Source: Chloroflexota bacterium (GTDB lineage Bacteria; Chloroflexota; Limnocylindria; Limnocylindrales; CSP1-4). From it: DNA of 64,000 nucleotides. Location: contig JBIQKJ010000004.1 in NCBI GenBank assembly GCA_044506615.1, positions 134,383 to 198,382 on the forward strand. Reading direction: 5' to 3'. Positions 38,037 through 57,412 of the stretch are shown here, one piece after another. The position numbers and the translations under genes were made by a program. Under the pieces are notes generated by a model. The model saw only the letters and a program-made list of their open reading frames with translations. It searched no databases and was not told the DNA's origin. Position 1 is the stretch's first letter; each line of letters opens with the position of its first letter.

Positions 38037-38387
38037 ATCGCCACGATCGTCGATCAGCCCGACGAGCTTCGGGCGCTCCGCGCGTTCCACAAGACGCTCG
38101 CCGACGTCAACCGCCTGCGGATCGTCCAGCGGCTCGCCGGCGGCGACGCCAGCGTGACCGAGCTCATCGACCACGTCGGGCTGAGCCAGCCGCTCGTCAG
38201 CTGGCATGTCGGCAAGCTGCGCGACGCCGGTGTCGTCGAGACGACGCGGATCGGCCGCGAGACCGTGTGCCGCCTCAACACCGACGCCTTTGCCGAGTTC
38301 GCCGCCCGGGAGCGCGCGGTCCTCGGACTCGATGCCCAGCGGCCGAACCCGCTCGCTCGACCCGCGACCGACCGGGCCGCCTCGTGA
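38037..38387 (+). CDS. ArsR/SmtB-family winged-helix transcriptional regulator (start codon unresolved)
   Basis: The in-frame translation ...IVDQPDELRALRAFHKTLADVNRLRIVQRLAGGDASVTELIDHVGLSQPLVSWHVGKLRDAGVVETTRIGRETVCRLN is a complete ArsR HTH. The frame is open from 37944 but has no ATG/GTG/TTG before GTG 38154, which lies inside the HTH. See the corresponding finding. Confidence 0.6.
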   Translation: MATIVDQPDELRALRAFHKTLADVNRLRIVQRLAGGDASVTELIDHVGLSQPLVSWHVGKLRDAGVVETTRIGRETVCRLNTDAFAEFAARERAVLGLDAQRPNPLARPATDRAAS

Positions 38388-39016
38388 CCGGCTCGCTGGT
38401 GACCCCCGAGTTCCGCAGCCGCGTCCGCGGTCTGGCCGTGCCGGTCGCCACCGCGCTCGGCCGGCTCGGGCTGACCCCGAACGCGCTGACCGTCATCGGC
38501 TTCCTCGGCACGTGCGCGGCCGCCGCAGCGGCTGCGACCCAGGCCTGGGCCCTCGCCGGCGTCCTCGTGATCGCCTTCGGGATCTTCGACCTCTTCGACG
38601 GGGCGCTCGCACGCGCCACCGGCCGGGCGACGCGCTTCGGCGCCTTCCTCGACTCGACGCTCGACCGCACCGGCGAGAGCCTCGTCCTCGCCGGCGTGGC
38701 CGTCGGGTGCGCGGCGAGCGGCTTCCTCGAGGGCACGCTCCTCGCGGGGACCGCTGCCACGTTCGCGTCCGGCGTCACGTACACCCGCGCGAAGGCCGAA
38801 TCGATCGGTCTCCACGGCGAGGTCGGCGTCGCGCCGCGACCCGAGCGGCTCGTCATCCTGGCGGCCGGGCTCGTCCTCGCCGGCGCGCTGGCCGCCGACA
38901 CCGGCGCCACCGCGCTCGCGATCGCGCTCGGGCTCATCACCATCCTCTCAGCCATCACGGTCCTCCAGCGGATCGTCCACGTGAAACACCAACTCGGACA
39001 GGAACAGCAGGGTTAG
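38384..39016 (+). CDS. pgsA: CDP-alcohol phosphatidyltransferase, phosphatidylinositol-phosphate synthase-like
   Basis: 210 aa with a GTGA overlap to the ArsR gene. The motif [27 protein letters not shown] matches D(x)2DG(x)2AR...G(x)3D(x)3D. Its position directly upstream of ino1 supports inositol-1-P as substrate. Confidence 0.8.
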
Positions 39017-39035
39017 CAGGAGCGACGGAGAGCAC

Positions 39036-40301
39036 ATGGCAGGCAACGGCAAGAACGGCAGCAGCGCCAACGGCAGCACGCCGAGCAACACCTGGGCGGG
39101 CAGCGCCCGACGCAAGGACGGCAAGATCCGCGTCGCGATCGTCGGCGTCGGCAATTGCGCGAGCAGCCTCGTCCAGGGCCGCTACTACTACGAAGACGCG
39201 AAGGAGACCGACTTCGTCCCGGGTCTCATGCACGTCAACCTCGGCGGCTACCACGTCCGCGACATCGAGTTCGTGGCAGCCTTCGACGTCGACAAGAACA
39301 AGGTCGGCAAGGACCTGTCCGAGGCGATCTACACGAAGCCGAACAACACGTACGTCTTCCAGCAGGTCCCGAACCTCGGCGTGAAGGTCGAGCGCGGCAT
39401 GACCCACGACGGGCTCGGCAAGTACCTCAGCCAGATCATCGAGAAGGCCCCGGGCCCGACCGCCGACGTCGTCGGCATCCTCAAGGAGCGCGAGGTCGAC
39501 GTGATGGTCTCGTACCTCCCGGTCGGCTCCGAGGAGGCGACCAAGTGGTACGTCGAGCAGGCCCTCAAGGCCGGCGTCGGGTTCATCAACGCCATCCCGG
39601 TGTTCATCGGCCGCGAGCCCTATTGGCAGCGCCGCTTCGCCGAGGAAGGCCTGCCGATCATCGGTGACGACATCAAGAGCCAGGTCGGCGCCACGATCAG
39701 CCACCGCGTGCTGACCCGCCTGTTCATGGACCGCGGCGTCCGGCTCGATCGGACCTACCAGCTCAACTTCGGCGGCAACACGGACTTCCTCAACATGCTC
39801 GAGCGCGAACGCCTCGAGTCGAAGAAGATCTCGAAGACCAACGCCGTCACCTCGATGCTCGATTACGAGCTCGAGGACGACGACGTCCACGTCGGGCCGT
39901 CGGACCACGTGCCGTGGCTCCAGGACCGCAAGTGGTGCTACATCCGGATGGAGGGCACGACCTACGGTGACGTGCCGCTCAATGCGGAGCTCAAGCTCGA
40001 GGTCTGGGACAGTCCGAACAGCGCGGGCGTCATCACCGACGCGATCCGCTGCCTCAAGCTCGGTCTCGACCGGGGCCTGAGCGGCACGCTCGTCGCGCCG
40101 TCGAGCTACTTCATGAAGAGCCCCCCGCAGCAGATCCACGACGACATCGCGTTCAACCGCGTCGAGGCGTTCATCCGCGGCGAGGACACCGAGACGCTCG
40201 TCGGCACCGAAGCGCCCCAGAAGCGGCAGCTCCGGAAGCTGGCCTCGACGAAGGCCAGCCCCGAGCAGGTCGCGACCCGGACGACGGCCGCCGCGAAGTG
40301 A
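39036..40301 (+). CDS. ino1: myo-inositol-1-phosphate synthase
   Basis: 421 aa. [16 protein letters not shown] (NAD site), [38 protein letters not shown]. These match the bacterial/archaeal MIPS pattern. Confidence 0.9.
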
Positions 40302-41341
40302 CGTCGCGCGAACGCGAGCTCGAGGCGCCCCACCGGCGCCTCGAGCCGGGCCCGCGCATCCTCGAGAAGACGGCCGTCCTCGGCTACCGTGCCGCGGAGG
40401 CCGTCCTCGGATTCCTGCCGCCGGGTCCGCCGCGCTGGATCCTGGGACGCCTCGCGCAGGCCTCGTACCTGCTCTGGCCGACGAAGCGGCGCTGGTCGAA
40501 CCGGAACTTCGGGCACGTGCTCGGCCTGCCCCCGAGCGACCCGCGGGTGCGCCGGCTCGCGCTTCGCGCGTACGCCGAGTACGGCCGCTACCTGACCGAG
40601 CTGCTGCGTCTGCCGTCGCGCGACGCGGCCGAGATCGACCGACTGGCCGGCGACCTCGACGCCGACGAGGTCATGCGCCTGCTTCGGTCCTCGCCGGGCG
40701 GGCTGATCCTGGCCGCCGCGCACGTCGGCAACAACGAGGCCGTGGCTGCGTCGATTGCCCGGCACGGGCTCCCGATCAGCGTCGTCGCCGACGACTCCTC
40801 GTTCCCCGAGCTGTTCGAGCACCTCCGCCGGCAGCGCGAGGGGTGGGGGATCAGCGTCATCGCGTGGCGCAACCTGCGCGGGATCTTCGGCGTCCTCCGA
40901 CGCAAGGAGATGCTTGCGCTGCTCGTCGACTGGGGGTACCGGTCGGACGGGATCCCGGTCCAGCTGTTCGGCGCGTGGACGGCGCTGCCCGCCGGCCCGG
41001 CCACGCTTGCGGCGAAGACGGGTGCGCACATCCTGTCGATCCAGATGGGCAGGCGGCCGGACGGCACCTTCGGCGTGACCTGGCGCGAGCCGGTCGTCGT
41101 CGCATCCAGCGACCCGGCTGAGCTCCAGCGGGCGACCCAGCAGCTCGCCGACGAGCTGGCCGACACGATCCGCCGCGCGCCCGAGCAGTGGTACAGCTTC
41201 AAGCCGATGTGGCCGTCCTCCCCCGATGAGGCCGCCGACCTCGAGCGCCGGGCGCGGATCATGCAGTCGGGTCGACCGGATCCCGGTCCGGACCGGCGAC
41301 GCCGACGCGATCCGGCCGAGCTGGCGGTCGAGGGCGCATGA
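40298..41341 (+). CDS. lysophospholipid/PIM acyltransferase (LpxL/HtrB/PatA family)
   Basis: 347 aa with a GTGA overlap. The family pattern includes AAHVGNNE (HxxxxD/E-like region), LVDWGY and the C-terminal [12 protein letters not shown]. Confidence 0.7.
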
Positions 41342-42330
41342 CCCGCGCGCGGGGAACCGTCGGGCAGCGGATCCGGGCGTGGCTGGTCGCGCTCGTGTCG
41401 GCGCTCGTCGTGCGCCTGCCCGAGGGTCCGCTCACCCGCCTCGCCGAGCTCGGCGGGGAGCTGTGGTATCGGCTCGCATCGGCCCGCGCAGCGCAGGCCC
41501 GGCGCAACCTCCGGCGCGTGGCACGCAGCCTCGCCCACCGCGATCTCGGCTCGCCGCTCGTGCGCGCCGCCGCGACCGACGACCGTGCGCTGGAGCGGCT
41601 CGTCCGCGCCGCCTTCCGCCACAACGCCCGCTACTACCTCGAGGTGGCGCGCGTCCCCGCGCTCCGCGACCGGGACATCGACCAGCGCGTCCTGATCGAG
41701 ACGCCCGACACGGTCGCGGCAGCGTTCGAGAACGACCGCGCCGTGATCTTCGTCGGGCTCCACTTCGGCGCCATCGAGCTCCCGGCGCGCTTCCTCGCCG
41801 CCCGCGTCGGGCAGGCGGTCGCTCCCATGGAGACGATCGGCGACCCGGCCCTCCAGGCGTGGTTCGTCCGCACCCGGGGCGCAAGCGGGATCCGGATCGT
41901 CGGGCTCCGCGAGGCTCGCCGGGAGCTCCTCGCCTCGCTGCGAAACGGCGTCTCGGTCGGGATCGTCGGCGACCGCGATCTGACCGGCGGCGGGCTGCCC
42001 GTGCCGCTGTTCGGCGCGCCGGCGGACGTGCCGCTCGGCCCGGCGATGCTCGCCGTCGAGAGCGGCGCGCCGGTGTTCGTGGCCGGGGTCCGCCGAGCCG
42101 GCGTGGGCCGGTACCGCGGGCGCCTCGAGCCCGTCGCCGTCCCGGCGGACGGCACCCGCCGCGAGCGGGTCGTGGCGACCACGCGGGCGATCGCCGCGGC
42201 GTTCGAGCGGATCATCGCCGATGCGCCCGAGCAATGGTGGGCGGTCTTCTTCCCGATCTGGCCGGACCTGGAGGCGGCCGAGGCCACGCCCGCGCCCCGG
42301 GCGACGGTCGCCGGAGAGCACGGCCGATGA
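41338..42330 (+). CDS. second LpxL/HtrB-family acyltransferase (paralogue)
   Basis: 330 aa with an ATGA overlap. GLHFGAIE, IVGDRDL and the C-terminal PEQWWAVFFPIWP parallel the preceding gene. Confidence 0.7.
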   Translation: MTRARGTVGQRIRAWLVALVSALVVRLPEGPLTRLAELGGELWYRLASARAAQARRNLRRVARSLAHRDLGSPLVRAAATDDRALERLVRAAFRHNARYYLEVARVPALRDRDIDQRVLIETPDTVAAAFENDRAVIFVGLHFGAIELPARFLAARVGQAVAPMETIGDPALQAWFVRTRGASGIRIVGLREARRELLASLRNGVSVGIVGDRDLTGGGLPVPLFGAPADVPLGPAMLAVESGAPVFVAGVRRAGVGRYRGRLEPVAVPADGTRRERVVATTRAIAAAFERIIADAPEQWWAVFFPIWPDLEAAEATPAPRATVAGEHGR

Positions 42331-43196
42331 CGCAGGGGACCCCCGCCACGACCGCGACGAGCACGGCCACGCCGACCGGCAAGGCAGACCTCCATCTGCA
42401 CACGCTGGCCTCGGACGGGACGGTCGGCGTCGGGGCGATCCTGGACCATGTCGAGCGGACCGACCTCGACGTCATCGCGATCACCGACCACGACCGGATC
42501 GACGCCGCGCTCGTCGGACGCCGCATGGCGGCCGATCGCGGGCTGCGCGTCGAGGTCGTCGTCGGCGAGGAGGTCACGACGCTGGGCGGCCACCTGCTGG
42601 CCCTGTGGGTCGATCGGCGCATTCGACCGCTGCGCACGCTGAGCGCGACGATCGCCGAGATCCACGACGCCGGGGGGATCGCGATCCCGGCTCACCCGCT
42701 GGTCCCGTACCCGTTGTGCGCGCAGGGCTGGGTCCTCCGCGGCCTCCTCGACCGCTCGGATCCGCGCTTCCGGCCGGACGCCCTCGAGACGTTCAACCCG
42801 ACGATGCTCGGTCGCCCCTGGCACACGCGGGTCGTGCGCTTCGCGGAACAGCACGGTCTCGCGATGGTCGGCAACAGCGACGCGCACGCGCTCCCTGCGA
42901 TCGCTGCGGGCTGGACGGAGTTCCCCGGCACGACCGCCGCCGAGCTGCGGCGGGCCATCGAGTCCGGCGCGACGCGGCATCGCGGCTCGTTCCACGGCTC
43001 GGCCGGGCAGCTCCGAACGTTCGGGCAGCAGCTCCGCAAGTACGGCCGCGACGCCCGCGCCGAGCTCGCGGGACGAGTCCGGCGCGACGGCACGGGCCGC
43101 GATCTCGGCTATCCCGGCGGACACCTCCGCCCGGTCCGCGAGCACGGCGGCGGCCTCGAGCCGGGCCGGGACGAGGAGCGGGAGGGGGCGCGATGA
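42327..43196 (+). CDS. PHP-domain metal-dependent phosphoesterase
   Basis: 289 aa with an ATGA overlap. ADLHLHTLASDGT, IAITDHD, IPAHP and GNSDAHA form a histidine/aspartate pattern typical of the PHP (polymerase and histidinol phosphatase) superfamily. Confidence 0.75.
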   Translation: MTQGTPATTATSTATPTGKADLHLHTLASDGTVGVGAILDHVERTDLDVIAITDHDRIDAALVGRRMAADRGLRVEVVVGEEVTTLGGHLLALWVDRRIRPLRTLSATIAEIHDAGGIAIPAHPLVPYPLCAQGWVLRGLLDRSDPRFRPDALETFNPTMLGRPWHTRVVRFAEQHGLAMVGNSDAHALPAIAAGWTEFPGTTAAELRRAIESGATRHRGSFHGSAGQLRTFGQQLRKYGRDARAELAGRVRRDGTGRDLGYPGGHLRPVREHGGGLEPGRDEEREGAR

Positions 43197-44515
43197 AGAT
43201 CGGTCTCGTCTGCCCGTACATCTACCCCGAGTCGGGCGGCGTCGCCCAGCACGTCGGGTACCTCTACGACAACCTGCGGCTGCGCGGCCACGACGTGCGC
43301 ATCATCACGGCCTCGCACGGCCCGCAGCGGGCATCCGAGGGCGACGTGATCCGGCTCGGCGTCGGGTTCTCCGTGCCGACCAACGGCTCGGTGGGGACGC
43401 TGACGTTCTCGCCGCGCTACCTGTCCCAGATCCGGGACATGCTCGAGCGCGAGCGGTTCGACCTGCTCCACTTCCACGAGCCGTTCGTGCCGTTCCTGTC
43501 GCTCTTCCTGCTGCGCGAATCGCGCAGCGTCAACGTCGCCACGTTCCACGCCTACGCCGGCTTCTCGCCCTCCTACGAGTTCGGCCGGCGCTTCCTCGGC
43601 GGGTACGCTCGGCGGCTCCACGGACGCATCGCGGTCTCGGCCGCCGCGCGCCACTTCATCGACCGCTTCTTCCCGGGCGACTACAAGGTCATTCCGAACG
43701 GGGTCGACGTCGACCGGTTCCAGCGGGCCGTGCCGCTCGCGAAGTGGCAGGACGGGACGAAGAACCTGCTGTTCGTCGGGCGCCACGAGCCGCGCAAGGG
43801 ACTGCTCGACCTCCTCAAGGCGTACCGGATCCTGCGCAAGACCGGCTGCGACTGCCGGCTGCTCGTCGTCGGGAGCGGGCCGCAGGAGCGCGAGGCCCGG
43901 CGATACGTCGCCACCCGCCGCCTCAGCGGCGTGGAGTTCCTCGGGCGCGTGAGCGACAGCGAGAAGGCCCAGCTGTTCCGGACCGCCGACGTCTTCGTGT
44001 CACCGGCGACCGGCGGTGAGTCGTTCGGCATCGTCCTGCTCGAGGCGATGGCCGCCGGCGCGCCGATCGTCGCGTCCGACATCCACGGCTACAAGGGCGT
44101 CGTCCGTCGCGGGCGCGAAGGTCTGCTGGTGCCGCCCCGCCAGCCGAAGCCGTTGGCCGCGGCCATGGCGAAGCTTCTCGGCGACGACGACCTCCGCGCG
44201 CGGATGAGCGAGAGCGGCACCGAGCGGGCGGCCGAGTTCAGCTGGCCGCGGATCACCGAGCGGGTCGAGGCCTACTACGGATTCGTCATTCGCCGGCTGG
44301 CGGCCGCGGACGCGCTCCCGCCCGGGTTCACCGCCGAGGTGCCGCCCAAGCCGGCGTCCCCCGAGCAGCTGCGGCTCATCGACGCCGCGGCGCTGCGGGC
44401 GACCGAGCCCGGGGGCCCAGCCGGCAGGACCGAGCCGGTGCCGCCCGCGACCGACGGCTCGGGGCCGGTCGACCCGGTCCGGGATCTGACCCGAACCTCC
44501 TCCGACGACCGCTGA
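43193..44515 (+). CDS. pimA: GT4 glycosyltransferase, phosphatidylinositol alpha-mannosyltransferase-like
   Basis: 440 aa with an ATGA overlap. MKIGLVCPYIYPESGGVAQHV, GRHEPRKG, and ESFGIVLLEAMAAGAPIV (E(x)7E). It has an approximately 70-aa Pro-rich C-terminal tail. The pimA assignment rests on context with pgsA and the acyltransferases. Confidence 0.75.
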   Translation: MKIGLVCPYIYPESGGVAQHVGYLYDNLRLRGHDVRIITASHGPQRASEGDVIRLGVGFSVPTNGSVGTLTFSPRYLSQIRDMLERERFDLLHFHEPFVPFLSLFLLRESRSVNVATFHAYAGFSPSYEFGRRFLGGYARRLHGRIAVSAAARHFIDRFFPGDYKVIPNGVDVDRFQRAVPLAKWQDGTKNLLFVGRHEPRKGLLDLLKAYRILRKTGCDCRLLVVGSGPQEREARRYVATRRLSGVEFLGRVSDSEKAQLFRTADVFVSPATGGESFGIVLLEAMAAGAPIVASDIHGYKGVVRRGREGLLVPPRQPKPLAAAMAKLLGDDDLRARMSESGTERAAEFSWPRITERVEAYYGFVIRRLAAADALPPGFTAEVPPKPASPEQLRLIDAAALRATEPGGPAGRTEPVPPATDGSGPVDPVRDLTRTSSDDR

Positions 44516-44557: not shown

Positions 44558-47500
44558 TCAGCCGGGCGCGGGCCCGGCGCTGCCGACCGTGGCATCGATG
44601 CCTCGCTCGCCGGCCGCCCGCTCCGCCTCGACGATCCGCCAGGACCATGCCGAGTAGGCCACGACGAGACAGGTGATCGCCACCGCCGCGAGCAGGAGCG
44701 CGAGCATCGGCGTGAACAGCGGCGTGACCGCGTTGCGCTCCGCGGTGTTCACCGGGAAGTCGAAGTAGTAGAGGTACGTGGGCAGCAGGCCCTGGTACGC
44801 GTTGACCACCGCCGACGGCAGCCGCAGCCCCGAGATGTTCGGGTAGAACGCGACGAACGTGGCGACGACCGCCACGAGCAGCCCGCCGACGAACCGGCGC
44901 GGATCCCGCGCCCGCAGCACCTGCAGCGCGAGCCAGCCGAGCGGGACCGCGACGACCAGCGCGATCGGCTCGACCGGGACGTTCTCGAGCCGCAGCAGCT
45001 CGCCGTCGCCGACGAGCGCGACTCCGAGCATCGCGACCGCGACGATCGCGGCGGTCACACCGAGGCGAAGGAGCGAGCCGGTCGGCGACCCGTCCCGGCC
45101 GCGCCCCCCGAGCAGCAGCACCTCGCGGATGAGGAACAGCCCCCCGAGCACGAGCACGGCCGCGAGCAGCGCGGTCCGGGCGGTCAGCACGAAGCTCGGG
45201 ATGAGCTCGGGGCAGGCCGGTCCGGGTTCCACGCCGACCGCCCAGCACAGCGGCCGCGACAGCAGGTGCAGTACGGCCGGCGCGACGATGGCCGCCGCAG
45301 CAGCGGCCTTGGCGAGAAGCCACGTCCGGCGCGACGGACCGTGCCACAGCTCGGCGACGAAGTAGGCGAGGGCGAGGATCACGAACGGCAGCGCCGTGTA
45401 GTAGTGGTACTGGAACGCCGCCCGGTCGATCCTGGCCCACGGCACCCATTGCGCCGCAAAGCCGATCGCGATCAGCGCGAGCGCGAGGCTGCGTCGCCGA
45501 TACGCCTGCCACGCCACGAACGCGAGCGCCGGCACCCCGATCCACCAGATCACGAGGTTGCCCGCGTCGTAGATCGACGCCGCGGTACCGGTGTCGAAGC
45601 TCTCCTGGTAGAACCAGACCGGCTTCAGGTTGAACGGCCACGCCCACCACGGCGAGGACGCCGCGTGCTCGGCGGTGAGCTGGTCGTGGTAGCGGTACAT
45701 CTGGGCGGTCAGGTCGGCCAGCGTCTGGCCGGTGTGGCCGGCCGGGAAGCCGGCGATGATTCGGTGGTTCTCGATGGCCGCCCATGGCAGGTACGACGCG
45801 ACGTAGATCGCGAGGGGGATCACGACGAGCGAGATCGCGGCCCACACGAGCGGCAGCCCGAGGAGCCAGCCCGGTCGCAGCCAGGCGGTCGGTGGCGCCG
45901 CCGGCGGATCGAGCAGCCGCACCGGGTCGTCGGGGGCCGGCACGCGTGCGAGCGGCCCGAAGCCGGCCCGGCCGGCCACGACGAACAGCCCGTACACGAC
46001 CGGCGCGAGGATCGCGAGCACGAGCGCCACCTCCAGCGGCGTCACCTCCAGCGGCCCGACCGCGACGGGCTGGGTCTCCCGCCCGAGCGCGAGGGCGCCG
46101 AAGAAGACGACGACCGCTCCCGCCGCGGGCGCGAGCACCGCGAAACGGAACTCGTCGGTGGACCAGGCGATGGGGTGCGTGACGGTCACGACCACGGCGA
46201 CGAGCGTGAGCGCGACCATCAGCAGCAGGAACGGCACGTTCCCGAAGCCGGCCTGCCCCTCGGGGACGCTCATCGCCATGTAGCCGAGGACGACCGTGAT
46301 CCCGACGAGACCGGCGATCGCGACGATCCGCCCGAGCGCGCTCCGCACGAGCAGCAGGAGCGCGATCGCCCCGATCGAGTAGGCGGCGATCCACTTCGTC
46401 GCGAGCGCCAGCCCGAGGAACATGCCGACGATCGGGAGCAGGACCCAGAAGGCCCAGCGCCCTCGCCAGCGTTCCGTCCAGAGCAGCGCGAACACGACGT
46501 AGGCGGCAACGAGGCACAGGCCGAGCACCGCGTCGATCATGCCGATCCGCGAATGGGCGAAGAGCATCCCGTCGAGCAGCGCGAACGCGCCGGCAAGGAC
46601 CGCGACGTCGCGGCGCCGGAAGAGGATCCGTGCGAGGAGGTAGAGCAGCCCCGCCATCAGGGCCCCGGCGACGACCCCCGGCAGCCGCCAGGCGAACGGG
46701 TTGCCGCCGATCTCGACGGTCGCGACCGACCCGGCCTCGTCCCCGGCAAAGGCGAGGAGCTGTTGGCGGTCGCTCTGCGGGCGCTCCGATGCGATGTCCC
46801 AGGCGAGCGCCGAGGGCTCGAAGGGCAGCACGGCGTCGGCGTAGGGCGCGTTGGCGTGCGGCTCGATCACGTAGACCGTCCAGCCGGCGCCGTCCTGGGT
46901 GCGCCCGAGCACGTGGACCATCTCGGTCGCGTCGTTGAACGCGATCCGGGTGCCGGGTCCGGGCAGGAAGTTCGTGCTGGCGATCTCCGGCGACGTCGCC
47001 TCGTCGCCCCCGAGCGAGACGACCGTGAACGAGGGATCGTCGGGCGGGCCGGTCGTCGCGTACAGCTGGTCGCTGTCGACGTGCACGCGGGTCAGGCCGT
47101 GGGCTCCTCCGGCGATGTCCAGCCGGGCCACCTCGGCGGCGCCGGCGACCTCGAGGAACACGATCCCGTCCGTGCCCGCGACCGCGATCCTGGCCAGGTC
47201 GGCGACCTCGATCCCCGGCAGCTCGCCGGCCGCGATTGCTTCGTCGATGTCGGTGCGCGCCGCATCGTCGGGGATCCCGGTGATGACGGTGCTCGCCTCG
47301 CCCAGCGCGAGCCGCTCCTCGTAGTCCGCCGCGTCGCCGCCGAGGATCTCGACCAGTCGCTGGGCGGCGGCGGCCGGATCGGGGACGTCGCCCGGCGTCG
47401 ACACGACCGCGGGTCCGGTCCCGGCCTCGGCGAGGTCTGCCAGGCCGGCCACGGAGGCCGACGCGAGGACCTCTCCGCTGTCGCGGTCGAGGATCGCGAG

Positions 47501-49957
47501 CTCGTCGCCGGACGCGGCCACGAGCGTCGTCCCGTCCCCGGTGGCGAGGAGGTGATCGACCGGTTGCCAGGTCGCGACGAGGAACGGCTCGAGCGGCGCG
47601 CCGCCGTCCGCCGCCGCGAGGTCGACGCCGTACAGGTCGCCGTCGGCCGTCCCGACGAACAGCTGCCGGAGCTCGTCGTCGAGCGTGAGCGCGCGCGGCT
47701 GCGCGACGTCGAGCGTGGCGATCAGGTCGCGCGACGCCAGGTCGTAGACGCGCAGCCCGTCGTCGGCGGCGACGTACAGGCGGTCGCCGACCTCCTGCCC
47801 GCTGCCGAACGGGTCGGTTCGTCGGGGCTCGACGAGCGCGTCGAAGACCGGCGAGCCGACGGCGCTCGTGGCGCTGACCCGGTTGTCCCCGAGCAGCGCG
47901 ATCCCGCCGGCCAGCACGTACTTGCCGAGGTGCGGGTGCGTCCACTCGTAGATGTCCTGCGATTCGCCGTAGCGCCAGACCTGGAGGAACTCCGCCGCGG
48001 TCTGGACGTGGTGCACCTCGTCGAAGTGGAAATGCGGCGGCTCGCCGAGCCGGAACGTGCGGAGGACGAGCGTGGCGACCACGAGCACGATGAGCAGCCA
48101 GACGTCGAGCCGGTCGATGCGACCGCCACCCTCACGCCTGAGCAGGAGGCTCCGGTCCGCCCGGATCGAGGGACCTGCCAGCCGGTCGAGGCGATCGTCG
48201 GCCGTCCGCCGCCGCGCGGCGAGCGGATCGACCGCCGCCGGGAGCGGATCGAGCGCCGGGCCCTCCGCCGCGCCGGGGCGCATCGTCGTGGGCGACGCCG
48301 GCTCGTCGTCGGGAGGCGGGGCGGTTGTCAGGCGCATCTCCGGCGGGGCGACCACCGCAGGGCGGTGCGGCGCGGCCTCGTGGCCCGGAGACGCGTCGCC
48401 GGGGGCCGCGGGCGCGTCCTCGGACAGCGGCTCCCGCGCGCCGGCCTCGGCAATCTCGTCCGCGAGGCGCTCGCGGCTGTCGGCGCGGAGCTGGGCGAGG
48501 CCCCAGGCGAACGCCACGAGATGGACCATCGCCACGATCGTCACGCCCGGCGCCGAGCGCAGGGCCTGCCCGATGCCCAGCCAGTCGACGACGCCGACCG
48601 CGCTGTGATCGAAGAGCGTCGTGAGGACCACGTACAGGTTCGCGAACGTCGCCGCCGACAGGACGACGTAGGCGAGCCGCCAGCGGATCGAGACCGCGGC
48701 GAGGATCGCGCCGAGCGCGAAGAACGGGAACATGTAGCGCTCGTGCACGCGGGTCGGGACGACGAAGAACGCCATCGCGAGCAGCGCGAGACCGACGAGC
48801 AGCGTCGCCCGGTCGGGCGAACGGGCGACGAGCCACAGCACGAGCGCGATCGACGCGAGCAGCAGCGTCGTGCCGACGAGCACCGCGGGAATGGGACCGA
48901 ACGTGACCGTGCCGGTGCTGCACCGGTCGCCGCCGCTGTCGTTCGGCGCGACGTTCGGGGTGTCGCAGATCCAGTACCCGTCGGCGGCCAGGCTGTAGCC
49001 GAGGTCCCCGGGGATCAGCGCCCACGGGTTGTAGGCGTTGACGGTCGTGTACGGATAGCCGCCGGCGGCCACGCCGACCTGCTCGAGCAGCCCCGAGCGA
49101 ATGAACGGCGCCTCGGGCGACGGCTCCACCACCGACAGCCCGAACGGCGCCGCGAGCACGACCGCGGTCACGAACCCCGCCAGCGCCGTCGTCAGGATGC
49201 GGACCGGTCGGTCGGTTCGGCGCTCCCAGGCACGGAACCGCTCCCCGGCGCCCGCGCCGGGAGGGGTGGCCGGGCGCTCGGGCGGCGGATCGTCGCCGTA
49301 GGCACCGCGCGGCCACAGCGCGCGGCGGATCGTGACGACGGCCACGAGCGGTACGAGGATCCCGAGCTGCGGCTTGATGATCGCCGCGGCCACGGTCAGG
49401 ACCGCCGCGCGCTCCGGCCGGTCGCGCCACAGCTCGCGCAGCGCGAGCAGGAGGAACACCGCCCCGAACGCGTCGACCTGGCCCCACACGGCGCTGTCGA
49501 ACCAGGTGACCGGATTGAGCACGACGAGGGCGGCGCCGAGGAGCGCGACTCCCTGGCGCGCGCCGAGCTCGCGAGCCATCGACCAGACCAGCCAGCCGAG
49601 GGCCGCGTCGGCGAGGATCGCGGGCAGCTTGACGAGGTCGCCGATGCCCCCGATCGCGCTCCCGACGACGCCGACCAGCCACAGCACGTAGAGGTAGCCC
49701 GGCGTGTAGTCGGCGAAGGCGACCCGATCGTAGAAGCCGTACGGCCCGCCGGCCGCCAGCTCGGCCGCCCACGCCCGGAACGAGACGACGTCGGTGATGA
49801 ACCCGGAGCCGGGCAGCAGGACGTATGCAATGATGAATCGGAGGGCGAGCCCGATCGCGAGCACGACCGCGACCGCGGCGACGGCCCCTGGGATCCCGGC
49901 AGACCGTGACGACGTTCGCGCGCTTCGCTCGGTCCCACCCCTGGCGGGGCCAGTCAC
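44558..49957 (-). CDS. 1799-aa polytopic membrane protein fusing two GT-C glycosyltransferase modules: an N-terminal GT-C domain (family not assignable by eye) and a GT39 protein-O-mannosyltransferase-like domain carrying a beta-propeller-like insert of about 390 aa
   Basis: Lower 1799 codons of ORF 44558..51748, with GTG at 49957. Module 1 (about aa 1-495): FADYTPGYLYVLW, KLPAILADA, WGQVD. A Pro/Ala linker follows (about aa 495-610). Module 2: FHFDEVHHVQTAAEFL, EWTHPHLGKYVLAGG, then repeats such as LYVAADDGLRVYDLASRDLIATLDV and LFVGTADGDLYGVDL, then AWRLPGVVAGALMAGLLYLLARILF, HSRIGMIDA, and the C-terminal SSPWWAWPFNLKPVWFYQ (PMT C-terminal 4-TM region). No stop codon separates the modules. 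Confidence 0.7.
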   Translation of the reverse strand: MTGPARGGTERSARTSSRSAGIPGAVAAVAVVLAIGLALRFIIAYVLLPGSGFITDVVSFRAWAAELAAGGPYGFYDRVAFADYTPGYLYVLWLVGVVGSAIGGIGDLVKLPAILADAALGWLVWSMARELGARQGVALLGAALVVLNPVTWFDSAVWGQVDAFGAVFLLLALRELWRDRPERAAVLTVAAAIIKPQLGILVPLVAVVTIRRALWPRGAYGDDPPPERPATPPGAGAGERFRAWERRTDRPVRILTTALAGFVTAVVLAAPFGLSVVEPSPEAPFIRSGLLEQVGVAAGGYPYTTVNAYNPWALIPGDLGYSLAADGYWICDTPNVAPNDSGGDRCSTGTVTFGPIPAVLVGTTLLLASIALVLWLVARSPDRATLLVGLALLAMAFFVVPTRVHERYMFPFFALGAILAAVSIRWRLAYVVLSAATFANLYVVLTTLFDHSAVGVVDWLGIGQALRSAPGVTIVAMVHLVAFAWGLAQLRADSRERLADEIAEAGAREPLSEDAPAAPGDASPGHEAAPHRPAVVAPPEMRLTTAPPPDDEPASPTTMRPGAAEGPALDPLPAAVDPLAARRRTADDRLDRLAGPSIRADRSLLLRREGGGRIDRLDVWLLIVLVVATLVLRTFRLGEPPHFHFDEVHHVQTAAEFLQVWRYGESQDIYEWTHPHLGKYVLAGGIALLGDNRVSATSAVGSPVFDALVEPRRTDPFGSGQEVGDRLYVAADDGLRVYDLASRDLIATLDVAQPRALTLDDELRQLFVGTADGDLYGVDLAAADGGAPLEPFLVATWQPVDHLLATGDGTTLVAASGDELAILDRDSGEVLASASVAGLADLAEAGTGPAVVSTPGDVPDPAAAAQRLVEILGGDAADYEERLALGEASTVITGIPDDAARTDIDEAIAAGELPGIEVADLARIAVAGTDGIVFLEVAGAAEVARLDIAGGAHGLTRVHVDSDQLYATTGPPDDPSFTVVSLGGDEATSPEIASTNFLPGPGTRIAFNDATEMVHVLGRTQDGAGWTVYVIEPHANAPYADAVLPFEPSALAWDIASERPQSDRQQLLAFAGDEAGSVATVEIGGNPFAWRLPGVVAGALMAGLLYLLARILFRRRDVAVLAGAFALLDGMLFAHSRIGMIDAVLGLCLVAAYVVFALLWTERWRGRWAFWVLLPIVGMFLGLALATKWIAAYSIGAIALLLLVRSALGRIVAIAGLVGITVVLGYMAMSVPEGQAGFGNVPFLLLMVALTLVAVVVTVTHPIAWSTDEFRFAVLAPAAGAVVVFFGALALGRETQPVAVGPLEVTPLEVALVLAILAPVVYGLFVVAGRAGFGPLARVPAPDDPVRLLDPPAAPPTAWLRPGWLLGLPLVWAAISLVVIPLAIYVASYLPWAAIENHRIIAGFPAGHTGQTLADLTAQMYRYHDQLTAEHAASSPWWAWPFNLKPVWFYQESFDTGTAASIYDAGNLVIWWIGVPALAFVAWQAYRRRSLALALIAIGFAAQWVPWARIDRAAFQYHYYTALPFVILALAYFVAELWHGPSRRTWLLAKAAAAAAIVAPAVLHLLSRPLCWAVGVEPGPACPELIPSFVLTARTALLAAVLVLGGLFLIREVLLLGGRGRDGSPTGSLLRLGVTAAIVAVAMLGVALVGDGELLRLENVPVEPIALVVAVPLGWLALQVLRARDPRRFVGGLLVAVVATFVAFYPNISGLRLPSAVVNAYQGLLPTYLYYFDFPVNTAERNAVTPLFTPMLALLLAAVAITCLVVAYSAWSWRIVEAERAAGERGIDATVGSAGPAPG

Positions 49958-49981
49958 CTGGGGAACGGCTCCTGCACGAGC

Positions 49982-51445
49982 GTGAAGGTGGATCGGAGCG
50001 TAGCACAGGGTCGGGCGCACGACGCCCGGTCGACCGAACGGACGGACGCGCACGGAGCGGCCTGGATCGCGGCCGCGATCGGCGTCGGTTTCATGGTGCT
50101 CGCCCTCGCGATCTACTCGCGGACGTTGGTCGAGCGGCCGTACGACCACTTCGTCTGGCAGGCGGCGGCCTACCTCGAGGGGCAGGTCGCGATCCGCTAC
50201 CCGACGCCGGACAACTGGTACTTCCAGGACGTGCTGCCGGTCGAGACCGCCGACGGTGTCGAACGGGGGCTCATCCCGTTCCCGCCATTGCCGGCGCTCC
50301 TGCTGCTGCCGTTCGTGGCGCTCCACGGCCTCGCCACCGACGACCAGCTGCTGTTCGTGGTGCTCGGTGCGGTCGACGTCGGGCTCTGCTGGTGGATGCT
50401 CGGGCGGCTCCGGATCCGCCCGGCGATCCGGATCGCGACGACCGGGTTCTTCGCCTTCGGCACCGTCTTCTGGTATACCGCGCAGCTCGCGACCACCTGG
50501 TACCAGGCGCACGTCGTCGCGGTCGGGCTCGCGATGCTCGCGATCGGCGTCGCGCTGGGCGGTGACCGCGCCGCCGCCGAGCCCGAGGTGGACGCGACGG
50601 AACCCCGCGACGCGCTCGCCGCGATCGCCCGTGACCGCCTCGCGGTCGACCCGCGCCAGTTCGCCGCCGGACTGCTCTTCGGGCTGGCCTGCACGGCCCG
50701 CCTGACGGTCGTGTTCGCGGCGCCGTTCTTCATGCTCGTCGGGAGCGGCGGCTCGTGGTGGCGGCGCAGCTGGTCGGCGGGGCTCGGTGCCGCGATCCCG
50801 GTCGGCGCGCTCGTCGCGTACAACCTCGCCACGACCGGGCACGTCTTCCACCCGGCGTACGAGGTGCTCTACGCGCTCGAGGCCACCTTCTACCCGACGC
50901 TCGGGTACAACCTCGACTGGGGCATCGAGGACCCGCGCTACATCCCGCAGAACCTCGGGATCATGCTGTTCTCGGCGCCGGACCTCCTTCCCGCAGCGGT
51001 CCCGGACTCGCTCGCGGTCGACCCGGTCCCGTACTGCACGGAGCCCGGCGCGGTGCGCGGGCTCTTCGACGCCACCTGCCCCCTCGCCGTGCCCCGCGAC
51101 GTCGGCATGAGCGTGCTGCTGACCTCGCCCGCCTATCTGCTCGTGCTGCCGGCGCTCCTCGGCCATCGCGGCAGCCGGCTCGCCGCCGGCGCGTTCGTCG
51201 CGGTCCTGCTCGTGGCGCTCGTGAACCTCATGCACTTCAGCCAGGGCTGGGTCCAGTTCGGCTACCGGTTCAGCAACGACTTCGCGCCGTGGGCACTGCT
51301 GCTGGTCGCGCTCGGGGCGGAACGGCTGGCGGCACGCGATCGCGGCGGCCCCGGTCCGGGACTGGCGCTCGTCGCGACGCTCGTGCTGGCCTCGGTCCTC
51401 GTGAACACCTGGGGCGTCGTGTGGGGCAACCTGCTCGGATGGTGA
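49982..51445 (+). CDS. GT-C fold glycosyltransferase (ArnT/PMT_2-like polytopic membrane protein)
   Basis: 487 aa with 10 or more TM segments. It has an early periplasmic-loop acidic motif region (YFQDVLPVE...PFPPLPALLLLPF). It is divergent from the giant gene, with only 24 nt between the starts, so the start is uncertain (GTG at 49982 or 49988). Confidence 0.6.
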   Translation: MKVDRSVAQGRAHDARSTERTDAHGAAWIAAAIGVGFMVLALAIYSRTLVERPYDHFVWQAAAYLEGQVAIRYPTPDNWYFQDVLPVETADGVERGLIPFPPLPALLLLPFVALHGLATDDQLLFVVLGAVDVGLCWWMLGRLRIRPAIRIATTGFFAFGTVFWYTAQLATTWYQAHVVAVGLAMLAIGVALGGDRAAAEPEVDATEPRDALAAIARDRLAVDPRQFAAGLLFGLACTARLTVVFAAPFFMLVGSGGSWWRRSWSAGLGAAIPVGALVAYNLATTGHVFHPAYEVLYALEATFYPTLGYNLDWGIEDPRYIPQNLGIMLFSAPDLLPAAVPDSLAVDPVPYCTEPGAVRGLFDATCPLAVPRDVGMSVLLTSPAYLLVLPALLGHRGSRLAAGAFVAVLLVALVNLMHFSQGWVQFGYRFSNDFAPWALLLVALGAERLAARDRGGPGPGLALVATLVLASVLVNTWGVVWGNLLGW

Positions 51446-52995
51446 GCCCTCCACGCTGGGTCGCGCCCGTCGCCGTCGGCCTCGCGGCGTTCGTGCTGGC
51501 TCGCTGGACGCTGCTCCCCGGGGTCGCCTTCTGGGACACCGCGGAGCTGCAGGCCGTCGCACCGCTGATGGGAACCGCGCATCCGACCGGCTTCCCGACA
51601 TACGTCGTGCTCGGCTGGCTGGCCTCCGTCGTGCTCCAGCCGTTCGGTGAGCCGGCGTTCCGGATGAACCTGTTCTCCGCGCTGTCGGTTGCGGTCGCGG
51701 CCGCCGTGACGGTCGACCTCGTCCGGGCCCTGACGGGGTCCCGTGCAATCGGCATCGCCGCCGGGCTGGGGCTCGCCGTCACCCCGGTGGTCTGGGACAA
51801 CGCCACCCACGCCGAGGCCCACACGCTGCACCTCGCGCTGGTCGCGATCCTCCTGCGGCTCCTTGTCGGATGGGAGGACCGCCGGCGCGCCGCTGACCCG
51901 GACGCCCGTGCCGGCGCCGATCGCTGGCTGGCGGCGGCGGCGGTCGTGTTCGGCCTGTCGCTCGGCAACCACTCGCTGACGCTGCTGCTGGCGGTTCCCG
52001 TCGGCCTGTTCGTCCTCGCGGTCGAGCCCGGCATCGTCGGCCGGCCGCGGTTCATCGCGGCCTGCGCGGCGGCGCTCGCGGCCACGGTCGTGCTGGTGTA
52101 CCTCGAGCTCCCGCTGCGGGCCGGGCCGTTCCGGGCCCCGCTGGTCTACGGTCGACCCGAGACCTGGGACGGCTTCTGGTACATCGTGCTCGCGGAGCAG
52201 TTCCGCGGCAGCCTCAGCGCGCCGTTCGCCGACATGGCCGGCAAGGTGGCCGCGCTCGTCGACCGAAGCGTCGGAGCGTTCGGCCCACTGACGCCGCTCG
52301 TGCCGCTCGGGCTCGCGGCGACGGTCGTGGTCCGGCCGCGGTACGCGCTCCTCACCGGTCTCGGGGCGCTCATCACGGTCTTCTTCGCCGCGTCCTACGA
52401 CAACGCCGCGATCGAGCGGTACGACCTGGGGCCGATCCTGTTCGCCTGGACGTGGCTCGCGATCCTCGCCGCGTCGGCGGCCGGCCTTCTCGCCCGGGCG
52501 TGGCGCGGCGGCATCCGCCGGGAGGAGCCGCGGGGTCAGTGGCGGCCGGCGCTCCCCGCCGGCGGGGTGGCGCGGGTGCTCGTCGCGACGCTGCTCGTGC
52601 TGGCGGTCCTGCCCGGCGTGCCGCGGACGTTCGAGCGCGTGGATGCGAGCGGCGACCGCCTTGCCGAGCGCTGGCTCGACGACGTCGACGCGGCGCTCGA
52701 GCCGAACGCGGTCGTCGTGAGCTGGTGGAGCTTCTCGACTCCGCTATGGTACGCGCAGCACGTCGAGGGCCGGCGACCGGACATCGAGATCATCGACGAT
52801 CGAACCCGTCTCGATCGCGACCTCGGGTCGGTCGCGGACGTGATCAACGCGCACCTCGGCGCGCGGCCCGTCTACGTGATCCGCCCGGCGAACGAGCTGG
52901 CGGCGCTCGAGGAGGACTACGTCATCGAGTCGATCCATGTCGGCATGCCGGACCCGCTCGCCCGGGTGCTCGCACGACGCGAGGCCGGCTCATGA
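51442..52995 (+). CDS. DUF2723 / TMEM260-like GT-C glycosyltransferase
   Basis: 517 aa with a GTGA overlap. The N-terminal signature is GVAFWDTAELQAVAPLMGTAHPTGFPTYVVLGW. It is polytopic with a C-terminal soluble domain. Confidence 0.7.
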   Translation: MSPPRWVAPVAVGLAAFVLARWTLLPGVAFWDTAELQAVAPLMGTAHPTGFPTYVVLGWLASVVLQPFGEPAFRMNLFSALSVAVAAAVTVDLVRALTGSRAIGIAAGLGLAVTPVVWDNATHAEAHTLHLALVAILLRLLVGWEDRRRAADPDARAGADRWLAAAAVVFGLSLGNHSLTLLLAVPVGLFVLAVEPGIVGRPRFIAACAAALAATVVLVYLELPLRAGPFRAPLVYGRPETWDGFWYIVLAEQFRGSLSAPFADMAGKVAALVDRSVGAFGPLTPLVPLGLAATVVVRPRYALLTGLGALITVFFAASYDNAAIERYDLGPILFAWTWLAILAASAAGLLARAWRGGIRREEPRGQWRPALPAGGVARVLVATLLVLAVLPGVPRTFERVDASGDRLAERWLDDVDAALEPNAVVVSWWSFSTPLWYAQHVEGRRPDIEIIDDRTRLDRDLGSVADVINAHLGARPVYVIRPANELAALEEDYVIESIHVGMPDPLARVLARREAGS

Positions 52996-53759
52996 CGGCC
53001 CGGGTCCCGCGGCTGTCGTACTTCTTCCCGGCGCACAATGAGGAGGCCAACCTCGCGGCGCTCGTCGAGGAGGCCCTGGCGACGCTTCCCGGGCTGGCCG
53101 ACGCGTTCGAGATCATCGCGGTCGACGACGGCTCGAGGGACCGCACGGCGGCAATCGCCGAGGAGCTGGCCGCGGCACATCCCGGGCTCGTGCGGCTCGT
53201 CCGCCATCCCGTCAACCTCGGCTACGGCGCGGCGCTGCGCTCGGGGCTCGCGGCCTCGCGCTACGAGCTCGTGGCGTTCACGGACGGGGACCGCCAGTTC
53301 AGGGTGGAGGACGTCGGCCGGCTGCTCGAGCGGCTGGCCGCGCCCGACGCTCCCGACGTCGTCGTCGGCTTCCGCATCAAGCGCGCCGACCCGCTGATCC
53401 GGACCCTCTACGCGCGGCTGTACCGCCTCGCGAACCGGATCTTCTTCGGTCTCCGGGTCACCGACGTCGACTGCGCCTGCAAGGTGTTCCGGCGCGAGGC
53501 GCTCGACGGCATCCGGGTCGAGTCCGGCGGGGCCTTCTTCTCGGCCGAGCTCCTGATCAAGCTGCGCGCGGCCGGCCGGTCCGTCGTGGAGGTGGGCGTG
53601 CCGCACTACCCGCGGACCGCCGGGTCCCCGACGGGCGCGAAGCCGTCGGTCGTGCTCCGGGCGGTGAAGGACTTCTGGCTCACGCGCGTCCGGATGTGGG
53701 CGAACCGGCGACGGGCGCTGCGCCGCGGCGAGCCGATCCTGGGCGGCCCCGCGACCTAG
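52992..53759 (+). CDS. GT2 polyprenyl-phosphate glycosyltransferase (Ppm1/DPM1/ArnC-like)
   Basis: 255 aa with an ATGA overlap. SYFFPAHNEE, IIAVDDGSRDRT, FTDGDRQF, DVDCACKVFRR. Confidence 0.85.
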   Translation: MTARVPRLSYFFPAHNEEANLAALVEEALATLPGLADAFEIIAVDDGSRDRTAAIAEELAAAHPGLVRLVRHPVNLGYGAALRSGLAASRYELVAFTDGDRQFRVEDVGRLLERLAAPDAPDVVVGFRIKRADPLIRTLYARLYRLANRIFFGLRVTDVDCACKVFRREALDGIRVESGGAFFSAELLIKLRAAGRSVVEVGVPHYPRTAGSPTGAKPSVVLRAVKDFWLTRVRMWANRRRALRRGEPILGGPAT

Positions 53760-54307
53760 CTCTCGCGACCCTCGCCCTCGCCCGGGTCGAGGTCGAGCGA
53801 GTTGACGAAGTCGCGGAAGACGTCCAGCCGGGGGTCGACCACCCGCTCGCCGGTCGACTCGAGGGCCGAGCCGGGCTCGCCGTCGTCGCCGAGCCCGCCG
53901 TCCGCGCCGAGGCCCGCCTGGTCCAGCACGTCGAGCGCCGCGTAGACCCGGACGCTCGTCCGGACCGCCAGCGCGAGCGCGTCCGAGGGACGCGAGTCGA
54001 CCTCGACCACCCGACCGTCGAGCTCGAGGAAGATCCGGGCGTGGAACGTCTCCTCGGCGAGCTCCGAGATGACGACGCGGTCGACGTTGGCACCGAGCCC
54101 CTCGAGCGCTGCGACGAACAGATCGTGGGTGAGCGGGCGCTCCGGGGCGAGACCCTGGAGCCGCATCGCGATCGCGCTGGCCTCCCACGGACCGATCCAG
54201 ATCGGCAGGTAGCGCTCGCGCTCCTTCTCCTTGAGGATCACGACGTGGCGGTTGGAGAGCATGTGTACGCGCACGCTCTCGACGACCATCTCGACCAGCT
54301 CCGCCAT
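53756..54307 (-). CDS. bifunctional nuclease family protein (BFN/DUF151)
   Basis: 183 aa from MAELVEMVVESVRVHMLSNRHVVILKEKERERYLPIWIG..EA.AI....G...ERPLTHDL...SRPSDALALAVR, with an acidic C-terminal tail. Confidence 0.75.
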   Translation of the reverse strand: MAELVEMVVESVRVHMLSNRHVVILKEKERERYLPIWIGPWEASAIAMRLQGLAPERPLTHDLFVAALEGLGANVDRVVISELAEETFHARIFLELDGRVVEVDSRPSDALALAVRTSVRVYAALDVLDQAGLGADGGLGDDGEPGSALESTGERVVDPRLDVFRDFVNSLDLDPGEGEGRES

Positions 54308-54314
54308 GGCGCGA

Positions 54315-55022: not shown

Positions 55023-55037
55023 CGGGCGCGGTCCGCG

Positions 55038-57302: not shown

Positions 57303-57412
57303 GCGGTCTCGTATCGGCGGTCGCCTGTCACGGTCGGCGACCAGGGCGGCGAGCGGCGGAATCCCGGTTCGATCGAGGTCGCTCGCTCCGAGATGGCTGG
57401 CAGGTGCCGGGA

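Follow-up and report, generated by a model that had tools for sequence, protein, structure and literature searches.

Among bacteria, protein O-mannosylation and the synthesis of phosphatidylinositol mannosides (PIMs) and lipomannan (LM) from polyprenyl-phosphate-mannose are considered hallmarks of the Actinobacteria. The combination of a GT2 and a GT-C glycosyltransferase in extracytoplasmic glycosylation is a common bacterial pathway (PMC11127046, PMC12041528). In mycobacteria, the GT39 enzyme Pmt co-purifies with the GT87-like protein Rv0051, the propeller protein Rv3212, and the DivIVA-like protein Rv1209, and loss of these partners phenocopies pmt to a varying degree (bioRxiv 10.64898/2026.07.15.738315). 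Rv3212 is an eight-bladed periplasmic propeller predicted to lie over the Pmt active site, Rv0051 was reported without catalytic residues and is apparently non-catalytic, and Paenibacillus has GT39-GT87 fusions (bioRxiv 10.64898/2026.07.15.738315). The eukaryotic TMEM260 is likewise a protein O-mannosyltransferase, for which only "distant homologs in bacteria" have been mentioned (PMC10214176). Here, we analysed a 64,000-nucleotide stretch of a Chloroflexota genome of the class Limnocylindria (GCA_044506615.1, contig JBIQKJ010000004.1, positions 134,383 to 198,382; hereafter the window), which at window positions 44558-53759 encodes a giant fusion protein and three further proteins, designated H, I, and J. 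The giant looks like a single chain containing the kinds of part that make up the Pmt-Rv0051-Rv3212 assembly. We consider it reasonably probable that this Limnocylindria locus serves extracytoplasmic glycosylation with a lipid-carried sugar, with J as the donor synthase and protein O-glycosylation by the PMT module of the giant at its core. Literature searches returned nothing on the locus or on protein O-mannosylation in Chloroflexota.

Genes were called from a GC3 frame plot in combination with lists of open reading frames (ORFs), the raw lists being crowded because the window has a G+C content of about 72%. Together, they support four genes at 44558-53759. The giant (1,799 amino acids (aa), two GT-C modules) is encoded on the minus strand at 44558-49957 with a GTG start codon at 49957, and this start is backed by the N-terminus MTGPA..., which is conserved among its relatives. 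The plus strand encodes H (49982-51445, 487 aa), a GT-C-fold membrane protein of an uncharacterised family according to its predicted model, I (51442-52995, 517 aa), a TMEM260-like (DUF2723, Pfam PF11028) GT-C protein, and J (52992-53759, 255 aa), a GT2 protein without transmembrane (TM) helices that belongs to the DPM1/Ppm1/ArnC/GtrB kind (Pfam Glycos_transf_2). As stated in the initial annotation, these last three genes are coupled by overlaps of 4 nucleotides (nt), which can be read directly as GTGA for the stop of H and the start of I (51442-51445) and as ATGA for the stop of I and the start of J (52992-52995). H, I, and J form a translationally coupled operon divergent from the giant. The start codons of the giant and H stand back to back with 24 nt between them (49958-49981), and the same spacing is found in a locus of the same genus (L004). 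Because the divergent starts are only 24 nt apart, the promoters of the giant and H must either overlap each other or be situated within the adjacent genes.

The assignment of the giant to the PMT enzymes is carried by its C-terminal part (residues 1086-1799 plus the stop codon, 44558..46702), which comprises a PMT/GT39-like GT-C core and a C-terminal TM bundle. Pfam PMT matches residues 1085-1204 (E 1.1e-10, 42 bits, cut-off 22.7) and PMT_4TMC residues 1413-1573 (E 1.1e-16, 61.4 bits, cut-off 32.4); PMT_2 also matches this core, and a comparison with the PDB retrieved fungal Pmt4 (3e-4). The first TM helix and loop 1 of the module are found further upstream in the protein (residues 613-700, 47858..48121), where Pfam PMT matches weakly over profile positions 2-63 and the motif HFDEV supplies the catalytic Asp-Glu pair (D646-E647). 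The residues F645-D646-E647 are invariant in 97/97 related loci as determined by tblastn projection. Between this segment and the core, loop 1 contains a beta-propeller-like insert of about 385 residues (residues 701-1085, 46703..47857), predicted to be extracytoplasmic and itself interrupted by a small alpha/beta subdomain. A profile of 16 orthologues matched the propellers of TBL3 (9.8e-6), UTP4 (1.9e-5), the S-layer YVTN protein (1l0q, 3.2e-4), and WDR18 (9e-4) in the PDB, and the single-sequence matches of the insert are weak. A stretch of about 90 residues within the insert (giant residues ~856-943, window ~47129-47392) resembles the N-terminal non-catalytic region of class B penicillin-binding proteins, with profile columns 256-343 matching 4ovd (8.1e-6), SpoVD (7rcz, 0.013), and PBP1 (8vbt, 0.49).

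The second GT-C unit of the giant is its N-terminal module (residues 1-505, 48443..49957), which Pfam and model comparisons place with the GT-C_B kind (GT87/PIG-M/ALG6-like). It is connected to the PMT module by a Pro/Ala/Glu-rich linker visible in the translation (residues 506-612, 48122..48442), which is gapped and poorly conserved in the alignment and lies between the TM clusters in a hydropathy scan. Pfam GT87 (PF09594) is reported for residues 1-540 scanned alone (26.1 bits, cut-off 25) and goes unreported on the whole protein; the module scanned alone also gives a weak Alg6_Alg8 match, and its relatives carry precomputed matches to PF09594, PF03155, or PF06728. A sequence profile of the module found no relevant match in the PDB. 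Its AlphaFold2 model (pTM 0.81) has as best Foldseek matches the glycosylphosphatidylinositol (GPI) mannosyltransferase I structure 9wno (E 5.6e-6, TMt 0.68), ALG6 (6snh, TMq 0.61), PIG-U, and ALG3, and among the GPI and ALG transferases the modelled fold appears closest to PIG-M and ALG6. Invariant positions in 19 genomes include D56, D83-Y84, K110, D117, D162, K195-P-Q197, and the motif PTRVHERY, so that the module combines a GT-C fold with conserved first-loop Asp residues (D56, D83). A search for homologues of the N-terminal module yielded fragments from Limnocylindria only, and a scan of genome contigs yielded Limnocylindrales only; neither Rv0051 nor a Paenibacillus fusion was retrieved.

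Of the 153 sites with an invariance of at least 97%, the giant analysed here departs from its relatives at seven (residues 649, 652, 678, 1141, 1190, 1712, and 1733), compared to 0-3 such sites in four orthologues used as controls. All seven deviant sites are located in the PMT module (window 46500-48020 and 44760-44830), and two of them are close neighbours of the catalytic DE motif, namely Y649H, where 104/104 relatives have Y, and R652Q, where 103/104 have R. These deviations could reflect altered specificity or relaxed constraint in this genus.

In common with the mycobacterial Pmt complex, the giant has a GT39-type enzyme with an Asp-Glu pair in loop 1, a second GT-C unit that is GT87-like, and a predicted extracytoplasmic beta-propeller. 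It differs from that complex in that the three parts form one chain with the propeller inserted in PMT loop 1, in that the GT87-like module, in contrast to Rv0051, retains an invariant first-loop Asp, and in that the host belongs to the Chloroflexota and not to the actinobacteria. The initial annotation had stated that the enzyme set differs from the mycobacterial PimE/EmbC/Pmt set, which turned out to be largely wrong, as the giant joins GT87-like, beta-propeller, and GT39/PMT parts as in the Pmt complex and J is of the Ppm1/DPM1 kind. An analogy may also be drawn with the eukaryotic PMT1/PMT2 dimers, which likewise pair GT-C units and have a domain capping the active site. The giant, in contrast, has no MIR domain, would pair a GT-C_B with a GT-C_A unit instead of two PMTs, and would use a bacterial polyprenol carrier.

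The lipid-linked donor for such an enzyme would be supplied by J. It was assigned to Pfam Glycos_transf_2 (E 1.8e-29), and its best PDB matches are ArnC (1.2e-13) and the P. furiosus DPMS (2.5e-10). The best NCBIfam models are PpgS, ArnC, PgfS, and a haloarchaeal Dol-P-hexose transferase, all of them far below their cut-offs (top score 74.6 bits vs. a cut-off of 370 for PpgS). No TM segment was detected in J by a hydropathy scan, and it shares with the mycobacterial Ppm1 the character of a lipid-phosphate sugar synthase without TM helices. J is thus probably a polyprenyl-phosphate sugar synthase of the kind represented by DPM1, Ppm1, ArnC, and GtrB. The three-component systems (GtrA, GtrB, and GtrX/GT-C, or the streptococcal PgfS-PgfM) have in common with the locus a GT2 enzyme that forms a polyprenyl-phosphate-linked monosaccharide and a GT-C enzyme that transfers the sugar outside the membrane. 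The locus differs from them in the four GT-C modules encoded side by side, in the lack of TM helices in J, and in the flippase, as no flippase is encoded at the locus and GtrA was not found in the assembly, which is 86% complete.

Protein H escaped all sequence-based assignment. No Pfam family matched even at E<=10, NCBIfam and a phmmer search against the PDB gave nothing usable, and a profile built from 34 H homologues found no sequence match in the PDB. A phmmer search retrieved 1,306 cluster representatives at E<=1e-3, and those with a name are all called "hypothetical". The AlphaFold2 model of H (pLDDT 89.7, pTM 0.90) has GT-C enzymes as its top 16 Foldseek matches in the PDB, including AglB, STT3, ArnT, Pmt4, ALG3/9/12, and PglB (TMq 0.28-0.47). 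Because the predicted structure matches GT-C enzymes and the sequence routes gave nothing usable, we place H as a putative GT-C enzyme by its model. Conserved residues comprise D83 in loop 1 (30/34 homologues), R240 (34/34), H177, D317, and D433, and GT87 was touched by only 2 of the 34 homologues. The initial annotation had described H as an ArnT/PMT_2-like GT-C protein, of which the GT-C part stands. Membership of the PMT_2/ArnT family was rejected for lack of a Pfam match, and the likeness is at the fold level only.

A second glycosylation region of the same genome supports a link between H-type proteins and GT2 donor synthases. It is located on another contig (C2; ~43.7-51.3, 74.9-76.4, 100.6-103.7, and 125.2-126.8 kb) and encodes, counting only proteins confirmed by Pfam, an H paralogue (26% identity) adjoining a GT2 paralogous to J, a stand-alone paralogue of the N-terminal module of the giant (weak Alg6_Alg8 match), two GT-C proteins of the PMT_2 type, and a further GT-C-like membrane protein that carries an NHL beta-propeller at its C-terminus. 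Because a paralogous H and a J-like GT2 are paired there as well, the arrangement suggests that a GT2 and an H-type GT-C protein form a recurring unit, in which H-type enzymes pair with a GT2 donor synthase.

Protein I is TMEM260-like by sequence. It matches Pfam PF11028 with 88.4 bits (cut-off 24.2, E 6.5e-25) and PMT_2 with 27.4 bits, and aligns with human TMEM260 (9rql), a protein O-mannosyltransferase acting on IPT domains, at E 2e-16 over residues 10-453. The similarity spans the whole GT-C core, including the D..E motif of the first loop, in which WDTAEL of I is aligned with GDSGEL of TMEM260. Compared to the human protein (707+ aa), I is shorter and lacks the C-terminal TPR domain, with no TPR family reported by Pfam and the alignment ending at residue 453. 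In the literature searched, we found neither a function for a bacterial DUF2723 protein nor a characterised bacterial TMEM260-like member. For the locus as a whole, Pfam, the structural models, and the PDB matches agree on four GT-C modules and a GT2 polyprenyl-phosphate sugar synthase, as the initial annotation had proposed.

Comparative genomics of the cluster, suggested there as well, showed that over 100 loci of other genomes have the arrangement as well, which is therefore not due to chance. Taxon names on homologues and loci point to Candidatus Limnocylindrales/Limnocylindria. Among the relatives, 40/41 carry the fusion. Of 121 genomes sampled evenly across the phylum, 13 contain it, namely the own genome, 11 others of the class Limnocylindria, and one weak partial match outside the class. 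As far as these genomes indicate, the fusion is found in all three sampled families of Limnocylindria and in essentially no other Chloroflexota.

The surroundings of the giant are regular in the family of the analysed genome (f1). In the window, its stop codon lies 42 nt from the end of a convergent phosphatidylinositol (PI)/PIM-type operon on the plus strand (38267..44515), which encodes pgsA, ino1, two HtrB/PatA-like acyltransferases, a PHP phosphoesterase, and a GT4 (Pfam CDP-OH_P_transf, Inos-1-P_synth, Lip_A_acyltrans twice, PHP, and Glycos_transf_1). Downstream of J, the minus strand carries a BFN-domain gene, a rhomboid gene, and a gene for a PP2C-like membrane protein (53756-57380). 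Within f1, this gene order is nearly fixed as pgsA-ino1-acyltransferase-acyltransferase-PHP-GT4, the convergent giant, divergent H-I-J, and convergent BFN-(rhomboid)-PP2C-like, and the PI/PIM operon is syntenic in nearly all loci. The genes between BFN and the giant are more variable. Among 83 loci of two families with this slot completely covered, 49 contain H, I, and J, 12 contain I and J, eight contain H and J, five contain J only, five contain I only, and four contain H and I, giving totals of 74/83 for J, 70/83 for I, and 61/83 for H.

The other two families retain the giant in altered surroundings. In a streamlined family (f2, loci L020-L023, genomes of about 1.0-1.4 Mb), a shorter fusion of ~1,400-1,450 aa is kept with J alone beside it in divergent orientation, and the PIM genes including ino1 are found ~20 kb away on the same contig. 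Retention in streamlined genomes of ~1.1 Mb suggests that the system is not dispensable. In the third family, the order is PP2C-like, BFN, J, and then the divergent giant, at a protein identity of 35-50% and among otherwise different neighbours; I is sometimes present, H never, and the PIM genes lie either at a distance of 5-7 kb or beyond the 20 kb fetched. J stands beside the giant in 8/9 additional loci fetched (7/8 from the third family). One genome of this family (G098) has two fusion copies (L104 and L111), of which only one is found in the J-BFN-PP2C-like context. Judging by these gene contents, the locus has the giant as its constant part, usually with J next to it, and H and I as accessory genes, and the contact with the PIM operon is family-specific. 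An exclusive pairing of J and the giant was also considered and had to be tempered, as J is missing from the slot in some loci and J-like genes occur phylum-wide.

All five modules fit a lipid-linked donor followed by GT-C transfer, and we therefore place them in one scheme of a donor synthase and its users. Judging by its family, J would use a nucleotide sugar to load polyprenyl phosphate with a hexose at the cytoplasmic face of the membrane, and the system would probably be a polyprenyl-phosphate-hexose system in which the hexose is probably mannose. A flippase would carry the lipid-linked sugar across the membrane, where the four GT-C modules would use it on the outer face. Because the giant matches the Pmt/Rv0051/Rv3212 complex in one chain, its PMT module would most probably O-glycosylate Ser/Thr residues of exported proteins. 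The propeller may cover the active site and choose the client proteins. For the N-terminal module, we envisage three possible roles, namely that of a Pmt2/Rv0051-like partner, that of a second active transferase elongating the glycan, or that of a PimE/PIG-M-like enzyme mannosylating inositol lipids, and the module may still be catalytic because the invariant first-loop Asp is kept. H and I would be accessory transferases, acquired or lost by individual genomes, that serve additional acceptors or add more residues. The general idea of the initial annotation, an envelope glycosylation fed by a lipid-linked sugar, fits this evidence. Elongation of a lipoglycan is possible in addition and less well supported than protein O-glycosylation.

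Several observations weigh against this proposal. The giant scores 48.6 bits for the NCBIfam Pmt equivalog NF058602 (cut-off 800), which also separates it from mycobacterial Pmt, and the placement of the propeller over the PMT active site is an assumption. The GT87 score of the N-terminal module is marginal, and its best structural matches are the lipid-glycan enzymes PIG-M and ALG6, which would suit a lipid acceptor equally well. J reaches no equivalog cut-off, with PpgS (GalNAc), ArnC (Ara4FN), and DPMS (Man) scoring alike. In 9/83 loci, the slot does not contain J, and because J-like GT2 genes without TM helices occur phylum-wide (76/121 genomes), J may be a general donor gene instead of a dedicated partner. 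No flippase was found, the GtrA family PF04138 being absent from the 86%-complete assembly and detected in control genomes. The lack of a flippase gene at the locus, the phylum-wide J-like genes, and the other GT-C and GT2 proteins on contig C2 argue against the earlier description of the system as self-contained. No sequencing run was recognisable as RNA, four runs of unspecified kind containing 48-69% of the sequence words. Finally, the host organisms are uncultured.

A more far-reaching form of this proposal appears possible, although we regard it as tentative and in its entirety rather doubtful. It holds that these organisms build an actinobacteria-like mannosylated envelope with a single polyprenyl-phosphate-mannose synthase lacking TM helices and four GT-C modules. 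The giant would then act as a holoenzyme with two functions, H would be the founding member of a new GT-C family, and I would represent the first function of a bacterial member of the TMEM260 family. The PMT module would start O-mannosylation under the gate of the propeller, and the N-terminal module would extend the glycan or mannosylate inositol lipids.

Among the alternatives, we weighed whether the cluster mainly elongates an inositol-lipid glycolipid of the PIM/lipomannan type. The neighbouring GT4 and acyltransferases would then make acylated PIMs on the inside, and the GT-C enzymes, above all the N-terminal module, would add mannoses from polyprenyl-phosphate-mannose on the outside, as do the mycobacterial PimE, MptA, and MptB. 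The locus shares with the mycobacterial PIM/LM pathway (PgsA1, Ino1, PatA, PimA, Ppm1, PimE, and MptA/MptB) a PI/PIM-type operon nearby, a putative polyprenyl-phosphate-sugar synthase, and a GT-C_B module with a first-loop Asp and marginal similarity to GT87, the family of PimE. Consistent with this, the cluster abuts the pgsA-ino1-acyltransferases-PHP-GT4 genes in nearly all f1 loci, ino1 is kept ~20 kb from the giant on the same contig in the streamlined family, the first-loop Asp is invariant, and the best match of the N-terminal module, GPI mannosyltransferase I, acts on a GlcN-PI lipid, followed by ALG6 and ALG3, which act on lipid-linked glycans. Because the enzymes with the closest folds have lipid-linked glycans as substrates, one of them PI-anchored, a glycolipid function stays in consideration, either in addition to protein glycosylation or in its place. 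Nevertheless, the module is fused to a PMT here, and orthology to PimE or MptA/B would go further than its marginal GT87 similarity. The tie to the PIM genes emphasised in the initial annotation holds for this genome, in which they lie beside the cluster, and fails class-wide, as the direct contact is confined to one family and lost in the other two. Across the phylum sample, ino1 is encoded in 104/121 genomes vs. 13/121 for the class-restricted giant, and inositol lipids are therefore widespread without it; a requirement of the giant for inositol-lipid synthesis was rejected on these counts. Furthermore, the characterised members of the families to which the DE-motif PMT module and the TMEM260-like protein belong act on proteins, and in mycobacteria the GT87-like protein associated with Pmt belongs to a complex that mannosylates proteins. 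We thus consider it unlikely that glycolipid elongation is the main role of the cluster.

Still less probable, in our assessment, is a decoration system of the GtrB/GT-C type, as in Firmicutes and Enterobacteria, which would modify a cell-wall polysaccharide, an S-layer glycan, or a teichoic-acid-like polymer with a side-chain sugar that need not be mannose. J scores equally for ArnC, PpgS, the streptococcal PgfS, and DPMS, further GT2 and GT-C pairs are encoded elsewhere in the genome, H and I vary among loci in the manner of serotype-type decoration genes, and such systems are widespread (PMC11127046). Against this, J lacks the two C-terminal TM helices of GtrB and ArnC, the GtrA-type flippase was not found in the assembly (86% complete), and the constant class-wide presence of a PMT-type enzyme, also kept in the 1.1-Mb genomes, argues for a core function. 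It is highly improbable that the genes belong to unrelated pathways and are co-located only through an origin-proximal block inherited in one lineage, as, although f1 synteny extends from the PIM genes through BFN, rhomboid, and PP2C-like towards recF-dnaN-oriC and inertia could explain much of the conservation, the divergent pair of J and the giant persists in two further families at 35-50% identity with changing neighbours, H-I-J are translationally coupled, and all five modules fit one biochemical scheme.

Beyond the glycosylation genes, the BFN gene and the gene for a PP2C-like/propeller membrane protein neighbour J and the giant in all three families (loci L004-L112), including loci that lack H, I, the rhomboid gene, and the PIM genes. 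A functional tie of these two genes to glycosylation is possible. The PP2C-like protein has a Pro/Thr/Ser/Ala-rich tail at its end.

With the overall scheme already known and a GT39-GT87 fusion noted in Paenibacillus, the new features of this locus would be the three-part single chain, the unnamed GT-C family represented by H, the bacterial TMEM260-like enzyme, and the phylum, in which they were unexpected. The fused giant would offer structural work a naturally occurring single-chain counterpart of the multi-subunit Pmt complex proposed for mycobacteria, and the single donor gene and the retention in 1.1-Mb genomes would make the system compact enough for heterologous reconstitution. A biochemical setting would be gained for two uncharacterised families, that of H, which has over 1,300 cluster representatives, and that of the TMEM260-like proteins of bacteria. 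More broadly, our findings suggest that a system related to the envelope mannosylation of the Actinobacteria is present in a deep-branching lineage of Chloroflexota that is abundant in soil and freshwater.

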